Source of the DNA: Thermoanaerobaculia bacterium | Lineage (GTDB): Bacteria; Acidobacteriota; Thermoanaerobaculia; Gp7-AA8 | Assembly (NCBI GenBank): GCA_036009605.1 | Contig: DASYLL010000458.1 | Location: forward strand, 8,829-72,828 | Direction: 5' to 3' | Length of the DNA stretch: 64,000 nucleotides | Shown: positions 9,141-64,000 of the stretch, piece by piece | Position numbering within the stretch: the first letter of the stretch is position 1 | How the letters are laid out: every line of letters begins with the position of its first letter | Notes under the pieces: model-generated | What the model was told of the DNA's origin: nothing | The model's database searches: none | The model's input: only the letters and a program-made list of their open reading frames with translations | Position numbers and translations under genes: made by a program

Positions 9141-9207
9141 CGTTGTCAGTTCTCGGTTGTCGGTTGTCTGTGACGCAGCGCGAAGAGCCGCGGACAACCG
9201 ACAACTG
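9141..9207. repeat. Palindromic repeat family A copy 2 (right arm truncated)
   Basis: TTGTCAGTTCTCGGTTGTCGGTTGTCTG ... CGGACAACCGACAACTG, lying 40 bp upstream of the polA start. Confidence 0.7.
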
Positions 9208-13430: not shown

Positions 13431-15308
13431 TCAGAGTACCAAGCGGGTATCACCGATTCGTTTCGTGGCGCCGTCCTGATCGAAAAACTCCAGTAACGGT
13501 ATCGCCACCTTGCGGGAGATCCCGAAGAGGTCTTTGAACTGCCCAACGTCGATCGTCTGCCCTTTCTTCTCGGCGAGCTTCGCTTTTGCGGCCGCGACCG
13601 TATCGCGATGCAGGTAGATGCCGTCGGCGAGACGGATCAGCGCGCCCTGTTTGATGAGGTACGCGATCATCCCTTCGATCATTTTCGGCTTCTGCGGAAT
13701 GGCTCTGATGAGCTGGGAAGTCGCCGGCGTCTGCAGTCCCGCCTCAGCAAATTTCAGTTCGATCTCGCGCGCCAGCTGCCCCTCGGTACCGCCGAGCGTC
13801 TTCGAGCGCCCGGGGATGTCGAGCGCGTCGCCCTGCACGACCGCGATCCGTTCTTTCGCCAGATCATTGAGGAGGAAGTTCACCGGCGCGCCTTCAGGGA
13901 TGAGCTTCTGCACGAATTCGCCTTTCGGAACGTTGGTCGCCATCCTGTTCGCTTTGAAGTAGCCGTCGAGCAGCTCCATACTGCGGCGGCGGAAGTCGGC
14001 GAGCACGTCGCTGTGCAGGAACGTGGAGCCCGTACGGGCGACGTTCGGGACGTTCTTCAGTTCTTTCGTCAGTGTCTCGATGCGAATGCCGGTGCGTGTC
14101 TGGATTTCTTCGATCGTGATGCCGTGCAGTCCCTGCAGTTTCGCGGTCAGCTCGACGCGCTCGGGCAGCGTCCCGTTCGCGAGCGTTTCGAGAATCTCGC
14201 GACGCGTGCCGCGACTGAGCTTGCCGAGGTGCGGATCGAGGATCACGCCCCCGCCGATGGTCGTGGCGGGTGAGTAGCGGCGGATCACGAAACGATCGCC
14301 GGCGGCCGCGACGACCGGCGCTTCGAGCCGCACCTGCGCGAACGCGCTCCCGCCGCCTTTGATCTCGCCGCCGGTTTGATCGACGAAACGGATCGTGCCG
14401 AGGAGCTCGGCGGAGAGATGGTGGAAGCGGATGCGCGTCTGCTCTTTGAGAGGCTTCGCGTCCGGCAACAGCTCGAGCTTCACGGTGATGATCTGCGACG
14501 GACGCAGCGTGTTCGGATGCAGCACCTGTTGTCCGCGATGCAGCTCGTCGAGTGGAACGTCGGCGAGATTCATCGACGTGCGCTCGCCTGCCGAGGCTTC
14601 CTCGCGCGGTTCGTTGTGGACCTGGACGCCGCGCGCGCGACTCTGTTTCTCGCCAGGCAGCACTTCCACGTCATCATCGACGCGAACGTGGCCCGAGTAC
14701 GTCGTGCCCGTGATCACCGAGCCGAAACCTTTCATCGTGAACACGCGATCGATCGGCAGACGGAACACGCGTTTGGTCGCATCGCGATCATCGACGCTCG
14801 CGACCGATTGCAGAATCGCGGCGCGCAAGTCATCGAGTCCCGCGCCCGTCGTGCTGCTCACCGGCACGATCGGTTTGCCTTCGAGGAAACTGCCGGCGAC
14901 GAGCTCTTCGACTTCGAGTCGCACGAGCTCGAGGATGTCGCGTTCGACGAGATCGCTCTTCGTCAGCGCGACGAGTCCCGTGGGGATGCCGAGGAGCTTG
15001 CAGATCGCGAAGTGTTCGCGCGTTTGCGGCTTGATCGATTCATCCGCGGCAATGACAAGTAGCGCGGAATCGATCCCACCGATGCCGGCCAGCATGTTCT
15101 TCACGAAACGCTCGTGGCCGGGAACGTCGACGAAACCGATCTGATAGTCGTCAGTGAACCAGCTCGCGAATCCGAGGTCGATGGTGATGCCGCGGCGCTT
15201 CTCTTCGGGGAGGCGGTCGGTGTCGATGCCGGTGAGTGCGCGGACGAGGGACGTCTTGCCGTGATCGATGTGGCCGGCCGTGCCGATCACGCGTTTCTTG
15301 CGGGTCAT
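13431..15308 (-). CDS. selB: Selenocysteine-specific translation elongation factor
   Basis: 625 aa with an EF-Tu-like GTPase N-terminus ([22 protein letters not shown]) and the long C-terminal extension typical of SelB. Confidence 0.8.
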
Positions 15309-32752: not shown

Positions 32753-32832
32753 CGACGCACCTGTCGACAACAATCGCAAGCCGCTTGCCACCGACGTGCA
32801 ATCAGCGCCCCCTTCCATACAATTGGCGCCTG

Positions 32833-35349
32833 ATGGAGCTCGTCGGTCAGAGGTTCGGGAACATACGCGTCACTGCAGCCGTCGGCAAAGGCGGGATGGG
32901 CGAGGTGTACGCGGGCTTCGACGAGAAGCTGCAGCGCAAGGTCGCGGTCAAGGTGCTGCACTCCGACTATCGCCTCGATGACGAAGCACGCGAACGCCTG
33001 TTGCGCGAAGCACGCGCGCTGTCGCAGCTCGACCATCCGAACATCTGCCGCATCCACGATTACATCGAGCATGGCGAATCCGATCTGCTCGTGCTCGAGT
33101 TCATCGACGGGACCACGCTCGAAGACGCGCTGGCGAAGAAGATGTCACGCGCCGAGAAGCTGCGCATCGCCATCAGCATCGCGGAAGTGCTCGTTGCCGC
33201 GCACCGCGCGGGCATCGTTCATCGCGATCTCAAGCCGGACAATGTGATGCTCACGCAAACCGGCGAGGTGAAGGTTCTCGATTTCGGCCTCGCGCGCTGG
33301 CTCAATCGCAGCGGCAAAGGACGCTCCTCGGACAAGACCGTCGCGGTCGCGACGCCGCTGGAGATCGCCAACCCGAACCTGCCTCAGGGCGCCACGGCTC
33401 CCTTCCTGGTTCCGCCGCCGCTGGCGAAGACGATCGCGCGCGAGTTCATGACCACCGTCGGCATCACGATGGGCACGCCGATGTACATGAGCCCCGAGCA
33501 GGCGCGCGGCGAAGAGCTCACGCCGGCGAGCGACATGTTCTCGTTCGGACTCCTGCTGCAGGTGCTCTTCAGCGGCGAGGATGGTCACAGCGGAATGCCG
33601 GACTCGCGCGCCATCATGTTGCGCGTCGCCAGCGGCGAGACCAATCCTGTGCGCGGCGTCTCCGGCGACGTGACCGCGCTGATCAATCGACTGAAAGCGC
33701 TCGCACCTGCCGATCGACTCACCGCCGTCGAGACGCTCGAACGTCTGCAGTTTCTGAACGCAAAACCGCAGCGGATCGCGCGCCGCAGTTTGATCGCCGC
33801 GTTGCTGATCATCGCCGTCGTTGCGGGCTGGCGATACATGGTCGACCTGCAGCGCGAACGCGCAGCGGCACTGAAGGCCGAGGCCGCGGCGGTTACCGCT
33901 CGCGCCGAAGCGGAGCGCAGACGCGGTCAGGCCGAAGACCTGATCGATTTCATGATGGGCGACCTTCATCGCAAGCTCGAGCCCATCGGCAGACTCGACG
34001 TCCTCGACTCCGCTGCCGATCGCGCGATGGCGTACATGTCGACGCTGCGTCCCGAGCTCATGACCGCGTCCGAGCTCACGCAGAACGCCACCGCACTCGA
34101 TCACCTCGGCGAAGTGCGCATGGCCCAGGGCAAGCTCCCCGAGGCGCTTGCTGCGTTCGAGCAGGCACTCGTGATCGCGCAAACGGCAACGCAGAAAGAA
34201 CCGCGCAACCTCGACGCGCGCTTCACCCTCGGGCAGACGCAGTTCTGGGTCGGCCAGACCCATCGCAGGATGGGAAACGCGAAAGGCGCACTCGCGAAGA
34301 TGCGCGACTACCTCGCCACGTCGGTCGTGCTCGCGGACATGGCGCCCGCGAATCGCGACTACCAGATCGAAGTCGCGTACGGGTACAGCAACGTCGGCAG
34401 TCTCCTCGAAGCCGACGGCGACATCGCAGGCGCGCTCGAACAGTACGAGCGCTGCGTCGCGGTGAAACGCGCGCGTCTTCGCACCGATCCCACGAATCGC
34501 AACTGGCAGGGCGATCTCGCGCAGACGATCAACAAGATCGCGTCAGCATTGCTCAAGCAGGGACGCCTTCGCGACGCGCATCTTCGGTTCGAAGAAGAGC
34601 GGGCGATCTACGCGGCGCTGGTGCAGGCCGACCCGAAACACACGGCGTGGAAGTTGTCTCTCGTCACCAATCACACCTACCTCGGCCTGCTGCTCCTCGA
34701 CCTCGGCGAGCTCGAGGCAGCGACGGAACATCTCACCGGCGCACAGTCGATCGCCAGCGAGCTCGTGTCGTTCGATCGACAGCAAGTCACGTGGCGACGC
34801 AATCTCGCCGCGGTGCTCGGCAATGTCGCGACCGTGCGAAGGATGCACGGCGACTTCGCGGGATCGCGCGAGCTCGCGTCACGCGCGGAAACGCTGCTCG
34901 CCGAGGCGATTCGCGAGGCGCCGCAATGGACCGACTGGAAACGCGATCTCGCGAACGTCACGTTGCGTCATGCGGAAGCGCTCTACGCCTCCGGCAATCT
35001 CGCCGAAGCGCGGCGTCGCGCAGAATCGGCGCTCGCATCCGTGCCGCCGAACCAGCCGCCGGCATGGAGACAGACCGCCGTCGACGCGGCCCTCGTTCTC
35101 GGTCGGATCGCCGCCGACCAGAATCGCAAGGCCGACGCGCGTGCTTCGTGGAGACGAACCGCCGACTCGTTGCGCGATGTGACGACCGCTGCCGGCGGTC
35201 CGCGTCTGCTCGATCGTCGCGCGCGCGCGCTCCTGCTGCTCGGCGACGAGGCTCAGGCGCGGCCGATTCTCGAGGAGTTGCGGCGGATGCAGTATGTCAA
35301 CCCGGATCTGATGCGCTTGCTGCGACCTGCAGCAACCGCCAGTTCGTAG
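32833..35349 (+). CDS. Ser/Thr protein kinase with C-terminal TPR repeats
   Basis: From MELVGQRFGN..., with kinase subdomains GKGGMGEVY, VAVK, HRDLKPDN and DFG, one TM segment and a roughly 450 aa TPR-like region. Confidence 0.85.
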   Translation: MELVGQRFGNIRVTAAVGKGGMGEVYAGFDEKLQRKVAVKVLHSDYRLDDEARERLLREARALSQLDHPNICRIHDYIEHGESDLLVLEFIDGTTLEDALAKKMSRAEKLRIAISIAEVLVAAHRAGIVHRDLKPDNVMLTQTGEVKVLDFGLARWLNRSGKGRSSDKTVAVATPLEIANPNLPQGATAPFLVPPPLAKTIAREFMTTVGITMGTPMYMSPEQARGEELTPASDMFSFGLLLQVLFSGEDGHSGMPDSRAIMLRVASGETNPVRGVSGDVTALINRLKALAPADRLTAVETLERLQFLNAKPQRIARRSLIAALLIIAVVAGWRYMVDLQRERAAALKAEAAAVTARAEAERRRGQAEDLIDFMMGDLHRKLEPIGRLDVLDSAADRAMAYMSTLRPELMTASELTQNATALDHLGEVRMAQGKLPEALAAFEQALVIAQTATQKEPRNLDARFTLGQTQFWVGQTHRRMGNAKGALAKMRDYLATSVVLADMAPANRDYQIEVAYGYSNVGSLLEADGDIAGALEQYERCVAVKRARLRTDPTNRNWQGDLAQTINKIASALLKQGRLRDAHLRFEEERAIYAALVQADPKHTAWKLSLVTNHTYLGLLLLDLGELEAATEHLTGAQSIASELVSFDRQQVTWRRNLAAVLGNVATVRRMHGDFAGSRELASRAETLLAEAIREAPQWTDWKRDLANVTLRHAEALYASGNLAEARRRAESALASVPPNQPPAWRQTAVDAALVLGRIAADQNRKADARASWRRTADSLRDVTTAAGGPRLLDRRARALLLLGDEAQARPILEELRRMQYVNPDLMRLLRPAATASS

Positions 35350-55860: not shown

Positions 55861-56322
55861 TCACCGCGGGTCGAAGTACCGAACCGCCAGAATCCCGATC
55901 CCCTGTTTCCCCTGCTGCGATTTCGGATCGTCGGCGGCGACGACCATCACGTTCGGGAGCGTGTTGTCGTAGATCAGGATCGACTTCGTCGATTTGCGCG
56001 GTTTGCCGAGGGTGTCGGCGAGGCGCGATTTCTCCTCGTCGAACGCCATGCGGATCTCGGGGAGAAAGACGAACAGCTCGAAGCGCACCGAGATCAAGCG
56101 GTCTTTGCGAAAGACCAGCGTGAGTGCTTTGTCATCGCTGTAGTCGACGACGATTTCCTGCGCGTCTTTGCCGCGCTTCGGAGCCCACTTCTCGAGCGCG
56201 GACAGCGCGTCCGCGCGCGACATGCCGATCGTCAGACGAAACGCGTCGGGGCGCATCCACGACGTGCGGCTGTTTGAGGGAAACGACGTTGCCGCGAGAA
56301 GCAGGGCCAGGAAAAGATGCAT
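55861..56322 (-). CDS. Secreted hypothetical protein
   Basis: From MHLFLALLLAATSFPSNS (signal peptide). Trimmed from the 255 aa track ORF, whose N-terminal two-thirds is Arg-rich GC-skew noise. The start overlaps the eda stop. Confidence 0.5.
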   Translation of the reverse strand: MHLFLALLLAATSFPSNSRTSWMRPDAFRLTIGMSRADALSALEKWAPKRGKDAQEIVVDYSDDKALTLVFRKDRLISVRFELFVFLPEIRMAFDEEKSRLADTLGKPRKSTKSILIYDNTLPNVMVVAADDPKSQQGKQGIGILAVRYFDPR

Positions 56323-56996
56323 CAGTGCACGTATTGGGCGTCGATCTCGACCTGGCGGCGCGACTCGACGATCGACGTCGCCAGCAGCACGCGACGACCG
56401 ATCTCGTCCCATTGCTGTTCGCGGACGAGATCCGGCACCGCAAGAGAGCCGCCGAGATTCACGGCGACGCAACCGGCGTCGAGGTAGTGATCGATCATGT
56501 CGAGCGGCACGGGACCGCCGGCGAGCATCAGCACGTCGCGGATCGGACCGCGGATCGTGCGGATGTAATCGGGGCCGCCGAGGTGCTGGGCGGGATAGAC
56601 CTTGACGATGTCGCAGCCGGCTTCCCATGCGCGAATGATCTCGGTCGGCGTCGACGCGCCTGCGATGCAGAGCATGTCGTTCTCGTTCGCGTACTCGATC
56701 ACGTGCGGATCGGTGTGCGGCGAGACGATGATCTTCGCGCCTGCACGGCGTGCCAGCGCCGCGTCGTTCGTGCTGCGCACCGTGCCGGCGGCGATGTCGA
56801 TCTGCATGCCGTAGCGTTTGTCGAGCGATGCCATCAACTCGATCGCATTCGGCGTCGTCATCGTGATCTCGAGAATGCGGATGCCGTTGAGCGCGTACGC
56901 TTCCGCAACCGCTTCCGCGGCTTCGGCAGTGTCTTCGCGGACGACACCAATGATCTGTTCAGTAAAGACGCGGCCCAGCAGGTCCTTGCGTGACAT
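56322..56996 (-). CDS. eda: KDPG / KHG aldolase (2-dehydro-3-deoxyphosphogluconate aldolase family)
   Basis: 224 aa TIM-barrel aldolase pattern; core GIRILEITMTTPNA... and Schiff-base Lys region DIVKVYPA. Confidence 0.8.
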   Translation of the reverse strand: MSRKDLLGRVFTEQIIGVVREDTAEAAEAVAEAYALNGIRILEITMTTPNAIELMASLDKRYGMQIDIAAGTVRSTNDAALARRAGAKIIVSPHTDPHVIEYANENDMLCIAGASTPTEIIRAWEAGCDIVKVYPAQHLGGPDYIRTIRGPIRDVLMLAGGPVPLDMIDHYLDAGCVAVNLGGSLAVPDLVREQQWDEIGRRVLLATSIVESRRQVEIDAQYVH

Positions 56997-57004
56997 GACG
57001 GAAC

Positions 57005-58723
57005 TTAATTTAGCATGACGCGCGTGAAGCCGGCCTCGCCCGAATACTGATCGAGCACGCCTACCGAAACGCGATCGCGACTGGCGTCGACTTCGAGGTT
57101 CACGGCGAATCCGATCGTCTTGCCCTTCACCTGCGCGATCGTGTCCTTCGACCAGCGGAACGATTGCTCCTGACGATTCACCTCGGAACCGACGCCGCCC
57201 GCATCGCCGAGGGAAACGAAGACTGCGAATGACGCGGCGTACTCGCCTTTGTCTTCGAGCAGCTCGAGGCTGTCCACCGGGATCCTGATCGTCATCGGAA
57301 TGGTTCGCTTCTCACCGTCGACGACCGCGGCGTCCATCGTCACGGAGATGTGGAGCGGATTGACCGGCTCGAGAACGTGATTGGCGATGACCTGATCGGA
57401 GACTTCCCAGTCGCGGCTGACCGCGCCGGACGAAAGCGTCGCGCGAGCGTTGAGGCCTTTGCGCACTTTGACCGCAATCTGCGATTTCGGATTCAGCGCG
57501 CCGGTCGAGCGATAGCCGACGGAGTAGTACGAGTCGAGATCGTTCATGATCTCGGTGAGGACCTGATCCGCGGGTCGGCCGATCATTGCCGCGCCGCCGG
57601 TGGCCGACGCGATGCGGTTGTAGCCGTCAAGCGCGCCCACCTGCGCCGCAAATTCCGAGGCGTAGTCCGCGCGGTGCTTCGACGCAGCGCCACCAACCTG
57701 CCGGTTTCCGAACTCGGGATTGACCGCGTAGATCGCGACCCCCTTCAGTTTTGCATTGGCGGCCACCACATCGAAGAACGGCGTGACGTCATACCCGGCG
57801 ATCTGGGTCAGCGTCGATGAAGTGCGTTGGTTTTTGAACCCGCGATGGTTGCTGAGCTCCGCCTGGTTTCGTGCGCTCTCGATCCTCTGAAAGACCGCGT
57901 CCGCCGGATTGAGCGGCATTCCGCCGCCGGCGAGGATGATGATCTTGCGGCCGCCCGGAACACCCGCAAACGCCGTGAGCGCGGCGTTGAGGGACGAGAG
58001 CGTCTGCTTCGTTTCGAACGCCGCGGTCGAAGCGTAGTTCCGCCCCGACGTGATGACCTCGTTGAAATCGACCGGCGGCAGGCTCCTGGTCATCCCGTTG
58101 CCGCTGCTGGTTGCGTTCCCACCGGTTTGCACCTGGTCGCCGGAACTGCCGCTGTTCGAGCCCTGCGGTGGTCCCATCGACTGGGCCGCCTGATCCGCGC
58201 CCTCGATGATCGCCTGGAGCGACTGCTCGAATCCGAGGAGCTCGGGATGCGGAAGGATCGCGTCCTTCTCAATCAGCGCCAGCGTCTTCAATACTTCTTC
58301 TTTATCCGCGGTCCACGCGAGTCGCTGCTTCACCGAGCGCGCGATCGTGGCGACGGCAATGCGATCCGAGGGACCGATCAGCATCCGCTCCAGCGTCCCT
58401 CGGGTCGCCTCGAACACCTTGCGTCGCGCGGAGAGGGCGATCGAACCGTTGTCGATGATCAGCAGAATGCGACGCGGCGCGGGCTGCACCGTCTCGACGG
58501 TTCCGCTCGTCGTACGACTGATCTCCGAGAGATTCGTCAGCTCCTGCGGTTTGCCATCGACGAGGATCTCGAAGTCGTTCTTCGTGAGGCCGGTGACGCG
58601 CTTGCCTTGTTTGTCGCTGACGACGACGTCGAGGTTCGTGACCTGCACATCGATGACTTCACTCTGCTGCGCGAACAGCGGGAACGCCAATACAGCCAAT
58701 GCCACTGCGACGATGCGTTTCAC
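57005..58723 (-). CDS. Secreted VWA-domain protein of the 'VWFA-related Acidobacterial domain' type
   Basis: Signal peptide MKRIVAVALAVLAFPLFAQ, a VWA-like core ILLIIDNGS.., and the overall architecture characteristic of Acidobacterial VWFA-related proteins; 572 aa. Confidence 0.75.
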   Translation of the reverse strand: MKRIVAVALAVLAFPLFAQQSEVIDVQVTNLDVVVSDKQGKRVTGLTKNDFEILVDGKPQELTNLSEISRTTSGTVETVQPAPRRILLIIDNGSIALSARRKVFEATRGTLERMLIGPSDRIAVATIARSVKQRLAWTADKEEVLKTLALIEKDAILPHPELLGFEQSLQAIIEGADQAAQSMGPPQGSNSGSSGDQVQTGGNATSSGNGMTRSLPPVDFNEVITSGRNYASTAAFETKQTLSSLNAALTAFAGVPGGRKIIILAGGGMPLNPADAVFQRIESARNQAELSNHRGFKNQRTSSTLTQIAGYDVTPFFDVVAANAKLKGVAIYAVNPEFGNRQVGGAASKHRADYASEFAAQVGALDGYNRIASATGGAAMIGRPADQVLTEIMNDLDSYYSVGYRSTGALNPKSQIAVKVRKGLNARATLSSGAVSRDWEVSDQVIANHVLEPVNPLHISVTMDAAVVDGEKRTIPMTIRIPVDSLELLEDKGEYAASFAVFVSLGDAGGVGSEVNRQEQSFRWSKDTIAQVKGKTIGFAVNLEVDASRDRVSVGVLDQYSGEAGFTRVMLN

Positions 58724-59463
58724 GAGGCCCCCTTGGTAAACCAGACTCCCGAGTCATCCACCGGTATCAAAGAAACGTTGAGCTTCCGTGCGACGAGAAA
58801 CTCGTCGACGGCGCGGCGACAGCCTTCCCAGTATCCGTAATCATCAATCACGACGAACCCGCCTGCGATGACGAGATCGTAAAGGTTTTCGAGGCAAACG
58901 CGAGTCGAGTCGTACCAGTCGCCATCGAGCCGAAGTACTGCAATTGGGCCTATTTCGTGACGTGCGGCCGGCAGGGTGTCCTGAAACCAGCCCTGGCGGA
59001 TGTGCACGCGTGCCGCGTCGACGCCGAGCTTTTCGAAGAACAGCCCCTTCACGACGTCGAGCGGGCCGACGCATTGTCCGATCGGTTCGAGCGCGCCGCT
59101 CGAGCGATCGCCCGAGTACTCGATCGCCATCGTGCCGTCTTCGACCGTCGGCTCCGGCAATCCCTCGAACGAATCGAACAGCCAGATCTGCCGCTCTACG
59201 GATCCGGCCATGGTCATCACCGCGGCCGAGCCACCTTTGAAGACGCCGCATTCGACGATTGCGCCCGGCAGCGACTTCGACTCCGCCAGCTTCACGACGT
59301 CATACGCGTTGATGAGTCGCTCGAAACCGACCATCGTGTACGGCTGCACGAGCTGCACGGCACGCACCTTCTCGCGATCGCCCCCGGCCGCGCGGCGGAT
59401 CGCAAACCCGCGCTGCAATGGATAAAGGAGATTCCAGTAGACCGCGCGCCAGAGCCGCCTCAA
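58720..59463 (-). CDS. TylF/MycF-family class I SAM-dependent O-methyltransferase
   Basis: TMVGFERLINAYDVV...GAIVECGVFKGGSAAVM...RLDGDWYDST motifs of macrocin-O-methyltransferase-like enzymes. The start is uncertain: ATG at 59334 or an upstream TTG near 59463. The track ORF extends further as Arg-rich noise. Confidence 0.65.
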   Translation of the reverse strand: MRRLWRAVYWNLLYPLQRGFAIRRAAGGDREKVRAVQLVQPYTMVGFERLINAYDVVKLAESKSLPGAIVECGVFKGGSAAVMTMAGSVERQIWLFDSFEGLPEPTVEDGTMAIEYSGDRSSGALEPIGQCVGPLDVVKGLFFEKLGVDAARVHIRQGWFQDTLPAARHEIGPIAVLRLDGDWYDSTRVCLENLYDLVIAGGFVVIDDYGYWEGCRRAVDEFLVARKLNVSLIPVDDSGVWFTKGAS

Positions 59464-61736
59464 TGCAGCGCCGTCACGATCTCGGTGAAGGCAGGCTCGC
59501 CGCGCAGAGAATCGAGCCGGGGATCGACGGGAAGAAACACCATCCAGGGCGAGCGGTCTTCGCGCGCCGCCTGCAGCTGTTCGATCGCGGCGCGCGCATC
59601 GCCGAGTCCCGCGTGGATGACCGCGATGTCGTACGGCGAGACGTAGCGCGTGCGCGCCGTCGCGAGCAGTTCGGTGAGCAGCTCGCGCGAACGCTGCTCG
59701 TCGCCTGCGATCGCATATGTGTGCGCGAGCATGGTCGTGAGAATGGGAATGCGATCGACTTCGAATGCACGCGCGAACACATCGATCGCTTCGGGGTAAC
59801 GATGCTGTTGCCCGAGAGCCATGCCGAGCCAGCCATGCGCGGGGATGAAGTTCTCGTCGAGCTCGAGCGCCTTGCGAAAACGGCGGATCGCCGATTCGAA
59901 ATCGCGCGCGAAGTAAAACGGCCAGCCCGCGTGCACCGCGATGATCAGCGACAGCGGATCGAGATCCGCGGCCTTCGAGATCTGCTCGACTGCCTCGTCG
60001 AAACGTCCGCGTGCGGAGAGCAGCATCGCGTAGCCATCGTGCGCGTTCGCGTAGTTCGGATTGAGCTCGATCGCGCGGCGATAGGCTTCTTCCGCACCTT
60101 CCCAATCCCAGTCGAACCACCAGCGCACCGCGCCGAGGGATGCCCAGGCTTCGGCGAGACCGTCATCGATTTCGATCGCGCGCATCGCCGCGGCTTTTGC
60201 CTTCGGCATCGTGTCGTGCGGCGGCAGCGGGATGTTCGTAGCCATGGTGATGAAGCAGTCGGCCATGCCCGCGTACGCCATCGCGAACGAAGGATCGGAC
60301 TCGATCGCCTCGCGAAAAAACTGAACGCCGCGCCGCAGGCTCTCTTCTGTGCGCTTGTTCCAGTGATAGCGGCCCTTGAGATACAGCTGATACGCCTCGC
60401 TGTTCTCCGTCGTCTTTCTGCGGAGCTTCTTTTTCTCCGCGCCGGTGAGCTTCGGCCGCAGCTTGTCGGCGATCTCGCTCGACATCTCTTCCTGCAGCGT
60501 CAGCAGGTCGGCGAGCTGGCGGTTGTACGTCTCGCCCCACAGTTGCGCGCCATCGAGCGAGTCCACCAGCTCGACGCTGATCTGCAGCCTCTCACCGACA
60601 TTCTTCACGACACCGGTGAGAACCGCGCGTACGCGCAGCTCGCGGCCGACGCCTTGCGGATCGACGTCGCGGCCTTTGTAGCGGAACACCGTGCTGCGCG
60701 CCATGACCTTCAGCTTCGGCAACTGCGAGAGCTTGTTGATGATGCCTTCGGTGATGCCGTCGCTGAGGTACTCGGTGTTCGGATCGTTCGAATGATTGAC
60801 GAGTGGCAGCACCGCGATCGAGTCGATCGCTTTCGACGTGCGCCGTTTCGTGATCGTGCGGATCAGACTGTCGCTCACCATCGTCGCGCTGCTGCCGATG
60901 GAGCGCAGCGTGAGCGCGAGATCGCGCGCGGATTGAAAACGGGTCGACGGACTCTTCTCGACGCAGCCTTCGATGATGCGCTGAAACTCGGACGGCACGA
61001 CCGCCCCGAGCATGTCGCGCGGGAGATCGTCTTTGAGGATTGCCGCGATCGTCGCCGCGCCCGACTCGCGATGGAACGGCTTCTTCAGCGTCACCATCTC
61101 GAAGAGGATGCAGCCGAGGGAGAAGAGATCGGCGCTCGGATCGACGGCTTCGCCACGGAGCTGCTCGGGCGACATATAGCCGAGCGTGCCGATCACCGTG
61201 CCGGGCTGCGTCTGGAACCACTTCGTCGTCGGGATGTTGCCTTCGTCGCGATCGGAAAGAACGGGATCCGTTTGCGCGAGACCGAAGTCGAGAATCTTCA
61301 CGCGCCCCGTTTCGGTGAGGAAGATGTTCTCCGGCTTGAGATCGCGATGCACGATCGATTTCGCATGGGCCGCCGCGAGTCCTTCCGCGACTTCCGCGCC
61401 GATCTCCACGGCGCGTCGCCAGTTCATCGGCGCCTGCAGCGCATCGCGCAGAGTCTTGCCTTCGAGCAGCTCGGTGACGAGATAGAACGTCGAGTCCTCG
61501 CGTCCGACGTCATACACGGCGACGATGTTCGGATGCGAAAGCGCCGCGATTGCTCGCGCTTCGCGCTCGAGTCGGCCCGTGGCCTCCGCGTCCTGCAATG
61601 CGTCCTTCGCGAGAACCTTGATGGCGATGTCGCGCCCGAGGCGCGGATCGCGTCCGCGGTAGACCTGTCCCATTCCTCCTTCGCCGAGGAGAGAGAGGAC
61701 TTCGTAAGGACCGACTTTGGACCCGGCCGCGAACAT
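59460..61736 (-). CDS. Ser/Thr protein kinase with C-terminal TPR-repeat region
   Basis: Kinase motifs GEGGMGQVY, AIKVL, HRDLKPEN, DFG and GTLGYMSPE, followed by about 450 aa of TPR-like helical repeats; 758 aa. Confidence 0.85.
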   Translation of the reverse strand: MFAAGSKVGPYEVLSLLGEGGMGQVYRGRDPRLGRDIAIKVLAKDALQDAEATGRLEREARAIAALSHPNIVAVYDVGREDSTFYLVTELLEGKTLRDALQAPMNWRRAVEIGAEVAEGLAAAHAKSIVHRDLKPENIFLTETGRVKILDFGLAQTDPVLSDRDEGNIPTTKWFQTQPGTVIGTLGYMSPEQLRGEAVDPSADLFSLGCILFEMVTLKKPFHRESGAATIAAILKDDLPRDMLGAVVPSEFQRIIEGCVEKSPSTRFQSARDLALTLRSIGSSATMVSDSLIRTITKRRTSKAIDSIAVLPLVNHSNDPNTEYLSDGITEGIINKLSQLPKLKVMARSTVFRYKGRDVDPQGVGRELRVRAVLTGVVKNVGERLQISVELVDSLDGAQLWGETYNRQLADLLTLQEEMSSEIADKLRPKLTGAEKKKLRRKTTENSEAYQLYLKGRYHWNKRTEESLRRGVQFFREAIESDPSFAMAYAGMADCFITMATNIPLPPHDTMPKAKAAAMRAIEIDDGLAEAWASLGAVRWWFDWDWEGAEEAYRRAIELNPNYANAHDGYAMLLSARGRFDEAVEQISKAADLDPLSLIIAVHAGWPFYFARDFESAIRRFRKALELDENFIPAHGWLGMALGQQHRYPEAIDVFARAFEVDRIPILTTMLAHTYAIAGDEQRSRELLTELLATARTRYVSPYDIAVIHAGLGDARAAIEQLQAAREDRSPWMVFLPVDPRLDSLRGEPAFTEIVTALH

Positions 61737-61795
61737 GCAACCTCATTCTAGTGGCTGACTGGCGAGCAGCCATCGGACCCGAGTAACATTTCGCC

Positions 61796-62791
61796 ATGGT
61801 CCTGATCAACAAAGCGATCAACGAGGTCACGGTCAAGCTCGTGTACTACGGGCCCGGGTTGTGCGGGAAAACGACGAATCTCGAGAAGATCTACGCCAAT
61901 CCGAAGCTCGACAACAAAGGCAAGATGATCTCGATGTCGACGGAGACGGACCGCACGCTCTTCTTCGACTTCATGCCGATGGAGCTCGGCACGATCGCGG
62001 GCCAGAAGGTGCGCGTGCAGCTCTACACCGTGCCTGGTCAGGTCTTCTACGACGCGACGCGCAAGCTCGTGTTGCGCGGTGCGGATGGCGTGGTGTTCGT
62101 CGCCGATTCGCAGAGCGAGATGCGCGAGTCGAACCTCGACAGTCTCAACAATCTCAGGACCAATCTGCGTTTGAATCGCATCGATCCGACGAAGGTCGCG
62201 GTCGTCTATCAATTGAATAAACGCGATCTCCCGAACGTCGCATCCGTCGAAGAGATGACCGCCTACCTCGGCGCAACACCGGACTCCGTCGTCGAAGCCT
62301 CGGCGAAAGCAGGCGCCGGCGTGACCGCGACGTTGCGCGCCGCGGTCGCGAAGATTCTCGACAATCTGAAGAACAACGTCGACACGACGCTGTACGAAGA
62401 GCCCGCGCTCACCGCGCCGGACATGACACAGAAGTCAGGCGTCGCGCAGCATTCGGCAGGAACGCCGAAGTTGTCGATGCATTCGCCGGTCGCCACGACG
62501 CCTGCTCCAGCACCTGCGCCGGTGGTGGAAGTCGAGGCGGTCGTCGATGAAGATCCGTTCGATACCGGCGGGGTGGCGGTGCAGGTCGAGGAGGACGAAG
62601 ATCCGTTCGACGCGACGGCACATCACGTCGACTTCGAGGATCCGTTCGCGAGTCCCGCGGAAGTCGCTGCCGCACCGCCGCCAACGGATCTCGAAGAGTT
62701 GCTCGCGAATGCGAGCGCTCTCGTTTCATCGCTCGAGGTTGCACTCGAACGCGCGAGAGAGAACGAACGAAAACTGCGCGCACGGCTCTAG
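61796..62791 (+). CDS. MglA-like Ras-family small GTPase with ~135 aa acidic DPF-repeat C-terminal extension
   Basis: The first ~195 aa align nearly residue-for-residue with Myxococcus MglA (KLVYYGPGLCGKTTNL, STETDRTLFFDF, YTVPGQVFYDATRKL, NKRDLPN). This is followed by an Ala/Pro-rich linker, three EDPFD-type repeats and a short coiled-coil end. Confidence 0.8.
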   Translation: MVLINKAINEVTVKLVYYGPGLCGKTTNLEKIYANPKLDNKGKMISMSTETDRTLFFDFMPMELGTIAGQKVRVQLYTVPGQVFYDATRKLVLRGADGVVFVADSQSEMRESNLDSLNNLRTNLRLNRIDPTKVAVVYQLNKRDLPNVASVEEMTAYLGATPDSVVEASAKAGAGVTATLRAAVAKILDNLKNNVDTTLYEEPALTAPDMTQKSGVAQHSAGTPKLSMHSPVATTPAPAPAPVVEVEAVVDEDPFDTGGVAVQVEEDEDPFDATAHHVDFEDPFASPAEVAAAPPPTDLEELLANASALVSSLEVALERARENERKLRARL

Positions 62792-62800
62792 CTCGCCGCG

Positions 62801-62889
62801 CGTTGTCAGTTGTTGGTTCTCGGTTGTCTGCGACCTGGCCTGGCTTCGCAGTGACTCTTCAGACAACCGACAACCGAGAACTGACAACG
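62801..62889. repeat. Palindromic repeat family A copy 5 (most complete copy)
   Basis: CGTTGTCAGTTGTTGGTTCTCGGTTGTCTG ... CAGACAACCGACAACCGAGAACTGACAACG, starting 10 bp after the mglA-like stop. Confidence 0.75.
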
Positions 62890-62934
62890 CCGCGCCGAAG
62901 GCGTGCCCATGTCTGCCGGGATAGACTCCGCGCC

Positions 62935-63648
62935 GTGACCTGGTACCAGGAATGGTTCGGCGAGGAGTATCTCGAGCTTTACGCCCACCGCGACGAAGAG
63001 GAAGCGAAGCAGCAGGTGGCGTTCTTTCAACGCGAGTGCGGCGCGTTCGACGGTCCGGTGCTCGATCTCGCCTGCGGCACGGGTCGCCACATCCAGGAAC
63101 TCCAGCTCCTCGGATACCGCGCCCTCGGCTGCGATCTTTCGTACACGCTCCTCCGCACCGGCATCCGCGAGTACGGTCCGATGGCGGTCGCGCGCGCGGA
63201 CATGCGCCAGCTGCCCTACCCCGATGCCGTGTTCGAAGGCCTCGTCAACTTCTTCACGAGCTTCGGCTACTTCGCGGAAGAGGACGAGAACGCGCAGGTC
63301 GTGCGCGAGATGTCGCGCGTGCTCGCGCCGAATGCGCAGTTCCTCTTTGACTATCTGAATGTGGATCGCGAGCTCGAGAACCTCGTGCAGCGCGAGACGC
63401 GCGATACCCCGCGCGGTCCGGTACGCATCGAGCGATGGTTCGACAGATCTGACCGTTCCTTCAACAAACGAATGACAATCGGTGAAAAGCGTTACCTCGA
63501 GCGGGTCCGCGGCTACGATCTCGACGAAATTTCGGCCATGTTCGCGGCATGCAATCTCTCGATCCGCAGTGCCTTCGGGGATTTCGACGGATCCCCCTTC
63601 ACCCGCACCTCACCGCGCCTGATTCTGGTGGGGAGCCGCAACGCATGA
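62935..63648 (+). CDS. Class I SAM-dependent methyltransferase
   Basis: SAM-binding motif VLDLACGTGRH. I chose the in-frame GTG at 62935; the track ORF start at 62803 lies inside repeat A5. The stop overlaps the next start (ATGA). Confidence 0.65.
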   Translation: MTWYQEWFGEEYLELYAHRDEEEAKQQVAFFQRECGAFDGPVLDLACGTGRHIQELQLLGYRALGCDLSYTLLRTGIREYGPMAVARADMRQLPYPDAVFEGLVNFFTSFGYFAEEDENAQVVREMSRVLAPNAQFLFDYLNVDRELENLVQRETRDTPRGPVRIERWFDRSDRSFNKRMTIGEKRYLERVRGYDLDEISAMFAACNLSIRSAFGDFDGSPFTRTSPRLILVGSRNA

Positions 63649-64000
63649 AGGCGCCGCTTTCGCAGTATCCGGGGATGAACCCGTTCGTGCTGGACTGGCT
63701 CGGCGGCGATGAGCGGTTTCTGCCGCGCGCGGTGGAAAAGCGGCAGCTGCAGCTGCCGCACTCCAAAGAGCTTGCGGACGCGCTCGACGCTTCGAATCAG
63801 CGCTGGGGCATCAACGCCACCGACGCGATCAATCGCTGGGCCACTGGCGAAACACACACGATCATCGCGGGACAACAAGTCGGCTTCGCCGGCGGCCCTC
63901 TCTACACGATCGCGAAGATCGCCAGCATGATCCGTATGAAGCGTGAGCTGGAGAAGCAGGGCACGCCCGCGACCGCGCTCTTCTGGCTCGCGACCGAAGA
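63645..64000 (+). CDS. bshC: Bacillithiol biosynthesis BshC-like protein, N-terminal part (runs off window end)
   Basis: MKAPLSQYPG... with the signature IIAGQQVGFAGGPLYTIAKIASMI, resembling the BshC N-terminal motif TGQQ.GL.GGPLYT. Below the ORF-track cutoff or incomplete, so translated by hand. Confidence 0.6.
   Translation, partial: MKAPLSQYPGMNPFVLDWLGGDERFLPRAVEKRQLQLPHSKELADALDASNQRWGINATDAINRWATGETHTIIAGQQVGFAGGPLYTIAKIASMIRMKRELEKQGTPATALFWLATE

Follow-up and report, generated by a model that had tools for sequence, protein, structure and literature searches.

MglA serves as the bacterial model of Ras-like spatial regulation, and nearly all that is known about it comes from the 195-residue proteins of Myxococcus and Thermus, which act together with MglB. 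Roles in the MglA family have been described for the arginine finger R53/T54 and the catalytic Q82 (PMC4316618), and MglB and RomR have acidic C-terminal helices that dock in a pocket of M. xanthus MglA (PMC6785124). The only systematic survey of the family, by Wuichet and Sogaard-Andersen, left out MglA-clade proteins longer than 240 amino acids (aa), and the long-tailed architecture thus went unanalysed; the acidobacterial members listed there are short, 194 and 196 aa (PMC4316618). Our literature searches found no paper on long-tailed, acidobacterial or Thermoanaerobaculia MglA. Here we describe such a protein, 331 aa long, which is encoded by an mglA gene in a 64-kb stretch of Thermoanaerobaculia DNA (contig DASYLL010000458.1; the whole stretch is referred to below as the window) and exceeds the 150-240 aa range used in the survey for single-domain proteins. 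With a probability of roughly 55%, we consider it an orthologue, in Thermoanaerobaculia, of the group-1 MglA polarity GTPases, equipped with a modular and conserved C-terminal tail.

Several samples underlie the comparisons. A homology search of a 5.8-billion-protein collection provided the 120 best matches, and a search of 1.84 billion cluster representatives provided the best 150. A scan with one genome per species found a relative in 133 genomes, of which 80 were retrieved and 79 loci compared, each read at +/-10 kb around the mglA orthologue; the retrieved genomes are all metagenome-assembled, with Thermoanaerobaculia or Acidobacteria(ota) bacterium in their titles and, in a few cases, 'gp7'. 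Invariant columns refer to a family alignment of 88 sequences, and ratios of nonsynonymous to synonymous substitution (dN/dS) to pairwise comparisons of 12 orthologues.

An MglA-type G domain followed by a selected tail

Residues 2-193 align without a gap to MglA of M. xanthus (5ymx/6h17; E 3.4e-63, about 57-60% identity) and of T. thermophilus (3t12; E 4.7e-51), and the next match in the PDB after the MglA chains is Rab14, at E of about 1e-5; Pfam, which contains no MglA model, returns weak Arf/Ras matches only. Among the invariant columns are the whole P-loop GPGLCGKT at aa 19-26 (G19, P20, G21, L22, C23, G24, K25 and T26), in the MglA form GPGL(C/S)GKT of the G1 motif GxxxxGK[ST], the intrinsic arginine finger R53 with the switch-I T54 and D58, the complete G3 motif YTVPGQ at aa 77-82, which ends with the catalytic Q82, and the guanine-specificity motif G4, NKRD, at aa 141-144. 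In G3, T78 replaces the usual Asp of DxxG, a replacement that PMC3000849 presents as a feature of the MglA family. AlphaFold run with 88 close homologues gave the G domain a predicted local distance difference test score (pLDDT) of only 59 and was replaced by a run on a more diverse alignment, in which the AlphaFold2 (AF2) G domain scores above 90. Foldseek places this model at template-modelling (TM) scores of 0.88-0.92 to 14 MglA chains, highest for the GTP-analogue forms, while other GTPases reach at most 0.79. With a mean column conservation of 91% and a dN/dS of 0.12, the G domain, as judged from its sequence, has lost none of the residues required for MglA-type binding and hydrolysis of GTP and is a predicted catalytically competent nucleotide switch.

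The G domain is followed by 138 residues, aa 194-331, and the protein extends 136 aa beyond the length of M. xanthus MglA. The tail is present in all of the 120 best homologues, which are 69-97% identical to the protein and mostly 309-362 aa long; nearly all of them span the whole query, and three are truncated, at 266-298 aa. A DP[FWY] motif occurs at least once in 119 of the 120 proteins, and the C-terminal end LLANARAxVASLExALERARENERxL in all except a few truncated or frameshifted entries. The same tail architecture recurs in 79 species-level Thermoanaerobaculia genomes.

Within the tail, conservation is distributed unevenly. The proximal segment, with the consensus NVDTTL.EEP.L.APDM..KSGV...SAGTPKLSM, has a mean column conservation of 86% and a dN/dS of 0.22; D196, L205, P208, D209, G215, V216, S220, A221, G222, K225 and L226 are invariant, SAGTPK is present in 65 of the 79 species, and the pLDDT falls from 92 (aa 191-200) to 72 (aa 201-210), with predicted disorder beyond. 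The spacer that follows is variable (37% column conservation, dN/dS 0.42, pLDDT about 45-54). Next comes an acidic region of 38 residues with 13 D/E and no K/R, which carries the motifs VDEDPFD (DPF at aa 253-255, nucleotides 62552-62560), EDEDPFD (DPF at aa 269-271) and DFEDPFA (DPF at aa 282-284). When the tail is shuffled with its composition preserved, three DPF arise in only 1 of 200,000 trials; P254, F255, D269, P270, F271 and D282 are nearly invariant and F284 is invariant, the number of (D/E)DPF copies varies from one to three across the family, and the region as a whole shows 65% column conservation, a dN/dS of 0.29 and a pLDDT of 45-58. A second spacer (aa 288-298) is conserved at 38%, its synonymous sites being mostly saturated and giving no usable dN/dS. 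The tail ends in a helix of about 33-34 residues that AF2 predicts at pLDDT 92-97, with LALAL/LLANR at the heptad a/d positions, and over aa 299-331 its column conservation is 82% and its dN/dS 0.23, making it a candidate coiled coil or docking helix. The tail is thus under purifying selection in three modules parted by freely evolving spacers (Table 1).

One could imagine that the tail arose by read-through or a frameshift and is free of constraint or wrongly annotated: most of it is predicted to be disordered, and the tail alone matches no Pfam family (E<=10) and gives no meaningful sequence match in the PDB. Such an origin is already ruled out by the conservation data and we regard it as extremely improbable, given the modular conservation, the dN/dS values well below 1, an architecture shared by 79 species and by at least 120 protein clusters, and a GC content at third codon positions (GC3) of 0.79, similar to that of the neighbouring genes. 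The tail is real, selected and so far uncharacterised. An earlier note on this DNA, written from the letters alone, had called the GTPase domain extremely similar to Myxococcus MglA and had seen three acidic DPF repeats in a C-terminal extension; both observations are confirmed here, and the terminal coiled coil that it proposed agrees with the predicted heptad helix. It had also recommended following the tail through relatives, where the modules proved to be present and conserved.

Table 1. Positions of mglA, its parts and the divergent neighbour in the window
Feature	Position	Strand	Basis
mglA coding sequence (long MglA, 331 aa, ATG start)	61796..62791	+	open reading frame (ORF); homologues and species-level orthologues
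MglA G domain, aa 1-193	61796..62374	+	PDB matches, invariant columns, AF2, dN/dS
Proximal tail segment, aa 194-230: NVDTTLYEEPALTAPDMTQKSGVAQHSAGTPKLSMHS	62375..62485	+	conservation, dN/dS, AF2
Variable Pro/Ala-rich spacer, aa 231-249	62486..62542	+	low conservation, dN/dS, pLDDT
Acidic region with three (D/E)DPF motifs, aa 250-287	62543..62656	+	shuffle test, conservation, dN/dS
C-terminal amphipathic heptad helix (predicted), aa 297-330	62684..62785	+	AF2, conservation, a/d pattern, dN/dS
Divergent intergenic region between kinase and mglA, 59 bp	61737..61795	.	ORF borders
Ser/Thr kinase with tetratricopeptide repeats (TPR), 758 aa; lineage-specific neighbour, not core	59460..61736	-	Pfam/NCBIfam, catalytic motifs

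MglB genes and other long-tailed MglA proteins

No mglB was found in the 64-kb window and the 7 kb downstream of it, nor within +/-10 kb in the 80 related genomes, and the MglA/MglB module, in which mglB lies within four genes of mglA, is not seen here. A Pfam scan detected no Roadblock/LC7 domain (PF03259) among 20 small ORFs of the window, and Robl_LC7 is absent from the precomputed Pfam lists of nine genomic contexts. When M. xanthus MglB (a probe identical to PDB 6h5b_B) was searched against the window and 86 loci, there was no tblastn match at E<=1e-3 and no phmmer match at E<=10 among their 10,222 ORFs. We also asked whether a Roadblock protein might be hidden in a small conserved ORF upstream (55861-56325, cluster C11), but its product starts with a signal-peptide-like segment and has no Pfam or phmmer match, and the ORF was rejected.

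It is possible, though on balance unlikely, that the organism uses an ordinary MglA/MglB pair whose mglB (perhaps along with romR/romX) is encoded elsewhere, in which case the tail would be a lineage-specific localisation add-on similar to that of SofG. Orphan genes of the MglA family are known (59 of 449, PMC4316618), MglB and RomR occur in other Acidobacteria (PMC3441718), Chloracidobacterium has an mglB-mglA pair, and the switch regions that face MglB are fully conserved in the present protein. Against this stands the lack of a Roadblock gene in about 1.3 Mb of Thermoanaerobaculia sequence, which covers only +/-10 kb per genome.

Long-tailed MglA proteins are not confined to Thermoanaerobaculia, one of them being from Thermodesulfovibrionales. 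The best 150 cluster representatives (P0121-P0270) are MglA-like and almost all 300-790 aa long, in a ranking that is biased towards long proteins, since the tail of the query adds to the score and short MglAs collapse into few clusters. Their tails are acidic or Pro/Ala-rich and very diverse, with coiled-coil, beta-rich or basic-aromatic ends, and only 13 of these 150 have DPF in the tail. No Roadblock gene neighbours four other long-tailed types (loci L087-L090), and Table 1 of PMC4316618 implies coupling to MglB for 14 of 39 long MglA-clade proteins versus 390 of 449 short ones. One may speculate that long-tailed MglAs form a large, overlooked class of self-contained Ras-like switches, in which a disordered tail (here with acidic DPF motifs and a dimerising helix) replaces the separately encoded MglB/RomR, acts in cis on the alpha5 pocket and tethers the GTPase to its site of action. 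Its first defined member would then be the Thermoanaerobaculia protein, whose tail the kinase-TPR protein would read or phosphorylate as a lineage-specific input. We consider this generalisation very unlikely to hold as a whole.

The divergent kinase gene and the surroundings of mglA

Upstream of mglA and divergent from it lies a gene for a protein kinase, composed of a Pkinase domain (aa 11-268, E 1e-52), a middle domain containing SIAVLP..EYLSDGITE and a TPR array at aa ~440-750. The catalytic motifs GxGxxG, IAIK, HRDLK, DFG and SPE are all present, and no membrane-spanning hydrophobic segment was found in the protein, which is predicted to be a soluble kinase of the Hanks type. A promoter scan of the divergent gap between the two genes found no sigma-70-like consensus.

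An orthologue of this kinase (70-91% identity) adjoins mglA in 41 of about 79 species, always immediately divergent, wedged between an aldolase gene and mglA and separated from the latter by 29-220 bp. About 38 of the 79 species have no kinase at mglA, and in three loci the upstream flank is too short to judge. Neighbour clustering of the 79 loci identifies the KDPG/KHG aldolase gene, upstream and divergent, as the commonest neighbour of mglA (59 loci), and in at least eight loci the kinase is lacking despite identical flanks (BNR protein, small ORF, aldolase / mglA, methyltransferase, bshC). In locus L002 an RHS/PKD insertion shifts the kinase 9.5 kb away. Mapped on a neighbour-joining tree of MglA, the presence of the kinase requires up to nine changes and is mostly clade-structured.

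The kinase might nevertheless be a dedicated partner of MglA, with its TPR array binding the DPF motifs or MglA-GTP and its kinase domain phosphorylating the tail, for example at the threonine of SAGTPK. The orthologous kinase is predicted to be catalytically intact and cytoplasmic, and its fixed divergent position close to mglA in 41 species argues for coupling; so does the fact that TPR proteins are known partners of MglA, namely Bd2492 in Bdellovibrio (PMC3983030) and SgmX in M. xanthus (PMC7519303), and that the kinase MasK, encoded divergent to mglBA, binds MglA (PMC3546991). What makes a dedicated partnership unlikely is the distribution of the kinase: it is missing from some 38 of 79 loci, at least eight of which share the same synteny (C7-C11-aldolase / mglA-methyltransferase-bshC in terms of neighbour clusters), it is not found beside the more distant orthologue P0124, whose locus keeps the aldolase/mglA/methyltransferase/bshC order, it has been moved away from mglA in L002, and it must have been gained or lost up to nine times. 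Moreover, SAGTPK, DPF count, protein length and terminal helix are alike in kinase-adjacent and kinase-less species. A second Pkinase+TPR gene, for 854 aa, is present in the window (32785-35349, +), and the architecture is common in the genome, which leaves less weight for any single adjacency.

The kinase-mglA pairing is therefore a lineage-specific arrangement that does not define the system, although it may be functional; the tail, rather than the kinase, is the defining feature. As to the earlier note, its description of the 758-aa Ser/Thr kinase-TPR gene divergent at 59 bp agrees with the ORF coordinates and domain matches, and its remark that no mglB is adjacent holds for the window and for the vicinity of mglA in the related genomes. 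From its proposal of a kinase-coupled MglA-like switch, the MglA-type GTPase stands, and the coupling to the kinase, found in about half of the species and leaving no trace in the tail, is weakly supported.

In the window, the kinase gene overlaps by 4 nucleotides (nt) with a gene for a TylF-like O-methyltransferase (58720-59463, -), which in turn overlaps by 4 nt with a gene for a 572-aa protein (57005-58723, -) that has a signal-peptide-like start and no Pfam match; the KDPG/KHG aldolase gene (56322-56996, -) then follows. The kinase, methyltransferase, 572-aa and aldolase genes (56322-61736, -) possibly form an operon, and the methyltransferase and 572-aa genes are variably present among relatives. 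On the other side of mglA (62935-64000; L001 11140-15303) are genes for an S-adenosylmethionine-dependent methyltransferase, BshC, a bshB-like PIG-L deacetylase and a bshA-like GT4 glycosyltransferase, which are bacillithiol biosynthesis genes, followed by a lytic transglycosylase gene; about half of the Thermoanaerobaculia loci share this downstream block in synteny. Thirteen kinase-less species have a single-domain response regulator about 1.7 kb downstream of mglA (e.g. L027 8028-8480), standing among housekeeping genes (cation efflux, purE, mnmA).

The gap between the stop codon of mglA and the methyltransferase gene is filled by an inverted repeat (62800-62890) with 31-nt arms, 90% complementary, and a 29-nt loop; a related palindrome with the same GTTGTC(A/G)GTT units is located upstream of polA (9142-9207). 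The exact arm of the repeat is absent from 87 related loci, and the repeat therefore looks like a genome-specific element resembling repetitive extragenic palindromes (REP) or miniature inverted-repeat transposable elements (MITE). The remaining genes of the window are housekeeping ones (isocitrate dehydrogenase, polA, selB, PPDK, glyQS, suf operon, ddl, mlaD, maf), among which selB (13431-15308, -), the gene for the selenocysteine elongation factor, implies that the organism synthesises selenoproteins.

Proposed function of the tail and comparison with known systems

We infer that the tail equips the GTPase with its own means of partner binding and/or oligomerisation. The G domain would cycle between GTP and GDP as MglA does, while the flexible acidic linker of about 100 residues would use its (D/E)DPF motifs for multivalent, low-affinity contacts with partners and the terminal heptad helix would dimerise the protein or anchor it to a scaffold. 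In that case the GTPase itself would provide localisation or partner recruitment, tasks that would otherwise fall to separate proteins. The repetition of acidic-aromatic motifs is in keeping with weak, multivalent binding, and the terminal helix, which has Asn at a core position of its heptads, is compatible with a dimeric coiled coil or with docking. One candidate receptor for DPF is a TPR domain, a plausible one since short acidic-aromatic peptides are common ligands of TPR arrays; the other, likewise plausible, is the basic alpha5/beta2-beta3 pocket of the G domain.

The second candidate receptor leads to a more far-reaching idea, according to which this MglA is self-regulating and independent of MglB: the acidic tail would act in cis on the allosteric pocket, where it would take the place of the acidic MglB or RomR helices and adjust nucleotide exchange or hydrolysis, and the terminal helix would dimerise the G domains. 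The pocket residues L64, I67 and R181 are indeed invariant and position 186 is K or R; the MglB helices, acidic with D/E plus Phe, and the Glu-rich end of RomR bind this pocket and alter exchange (PMC6785124); no relative has an mglB nearby; and long MglAs are rarely coupled to MglB (PMC4316618). The idea is drawn solely by analogy, however, and the proline of DPF disfavours a helical ligand, K185 of the M. xanthus pocket is Ala, Ser or Thr in the present family, and the low AlphaFold confidence of the DPF region predicts no stable docking. We therefore regard cis-regulation of this kind as distinctly doubtful.

Some observations weigh against our preferred reading of a group-1 MglA whose conserved tail recruits partners. 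The orthologue P0124, which is 60% identical, keeps the acidic linker and the helix and has no DPF, so the motif may be dispensable. The proline of DPF breaks helices, and the motif cannot copy the helical binding mode of the MglB C-terminal helix. The specific partners considered for the tail are candidates only, and mglB, romR or a second, short mglA may still lie elsewhere in the genome.

In this protein a whole bacterial class has an MglA orthologue with a modular tail under selection, and its gene has no gene for a GTPase-activating protein (GAP) beside it. A tail that provided localisation, dimerisation or autoregulation would represent a second way to wire a bacterial small GTPase.

In eukaryotes, DPF/DPW motifs bind adaptors, and the hypervariable C-terminal tails of Ras and Rho target these GTPases. 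The DPF motifs described here resemble the former as short acidic-aromatic motifs repeated in a disordered region, a match in motif pattern that is an analogy only; we know of no AP2 appendage receptor in bacteria. The likeness to Ras/Rho tails is that a C-terminal extension of a small GTPase would be used in targeting, but the present tail, unlike theirs, carries no lipidation signal. Among bacterial proteins, the orphan MglA paralogue SofG of M. xanthus carries extensions beyond its G domain and coexists with canonical MglA/MglB. Like SofG, a group-1 GTPase not coupled to mglB (PMC4316618), the Thermoanaerobaculia protein is a group-1 MglA with no adjacent mglB, but it has no N-terminal extension.

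The MglA of Bdellovibrio bacteriovorus likewise has no neighbouring GAP gene and has a TPR protein, Bd2492, as a candidate partner, but no such tail is reported for it, and Bd2492 contains no kinase and is not encoded beside mglA (PMC3983030). A kinase gene divergent from mglA has a precedent in the masABK operon of M. xanthus, which is divergent to mglBA; in yeast two-hybrid assays its kinase MasK interacts with MglA, and it also suppresses mglA8 (PMC3546991), and the comparison extends to the gene arrangement only. The acidic C-terminal helix of MglB (D150-D152, D154, F157) and RomR resemble the tail in having, on a flexible extension, acidic residues clustered ahead of a Phe (PMC6785124), and the pocket that receives them (L64, I67, R/K181 and a basic residue at 185/186) is conserved in the present protein, whose own acidic motifs are, in contrast, proline-containing candidate ligands located on the GTPase itself in one to three copies.

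The closest described relatives are the MglA proteins of M. xanthus and T. thermophilus (5ymx, 6h17, 6izw, 3t12), which share with the G domain 57-60% identity over 192 residues, the P-loop, R53, T78, Q82, NKRD and a fold at a TM score of 0.9. They differ from the present protein in length (195 versus 331 aa) and in the absence of a 138-residue tail after helix alpha5, in their genes being part of an mglBA operon, whereas no mglB adjoins the present mglA, and in their hosts, the one here being an uncultured Thermoanaerobaculia bacterium. Set beside them, the protein is an uncharacterised variant within the known MglA family rather than a new kind of system.

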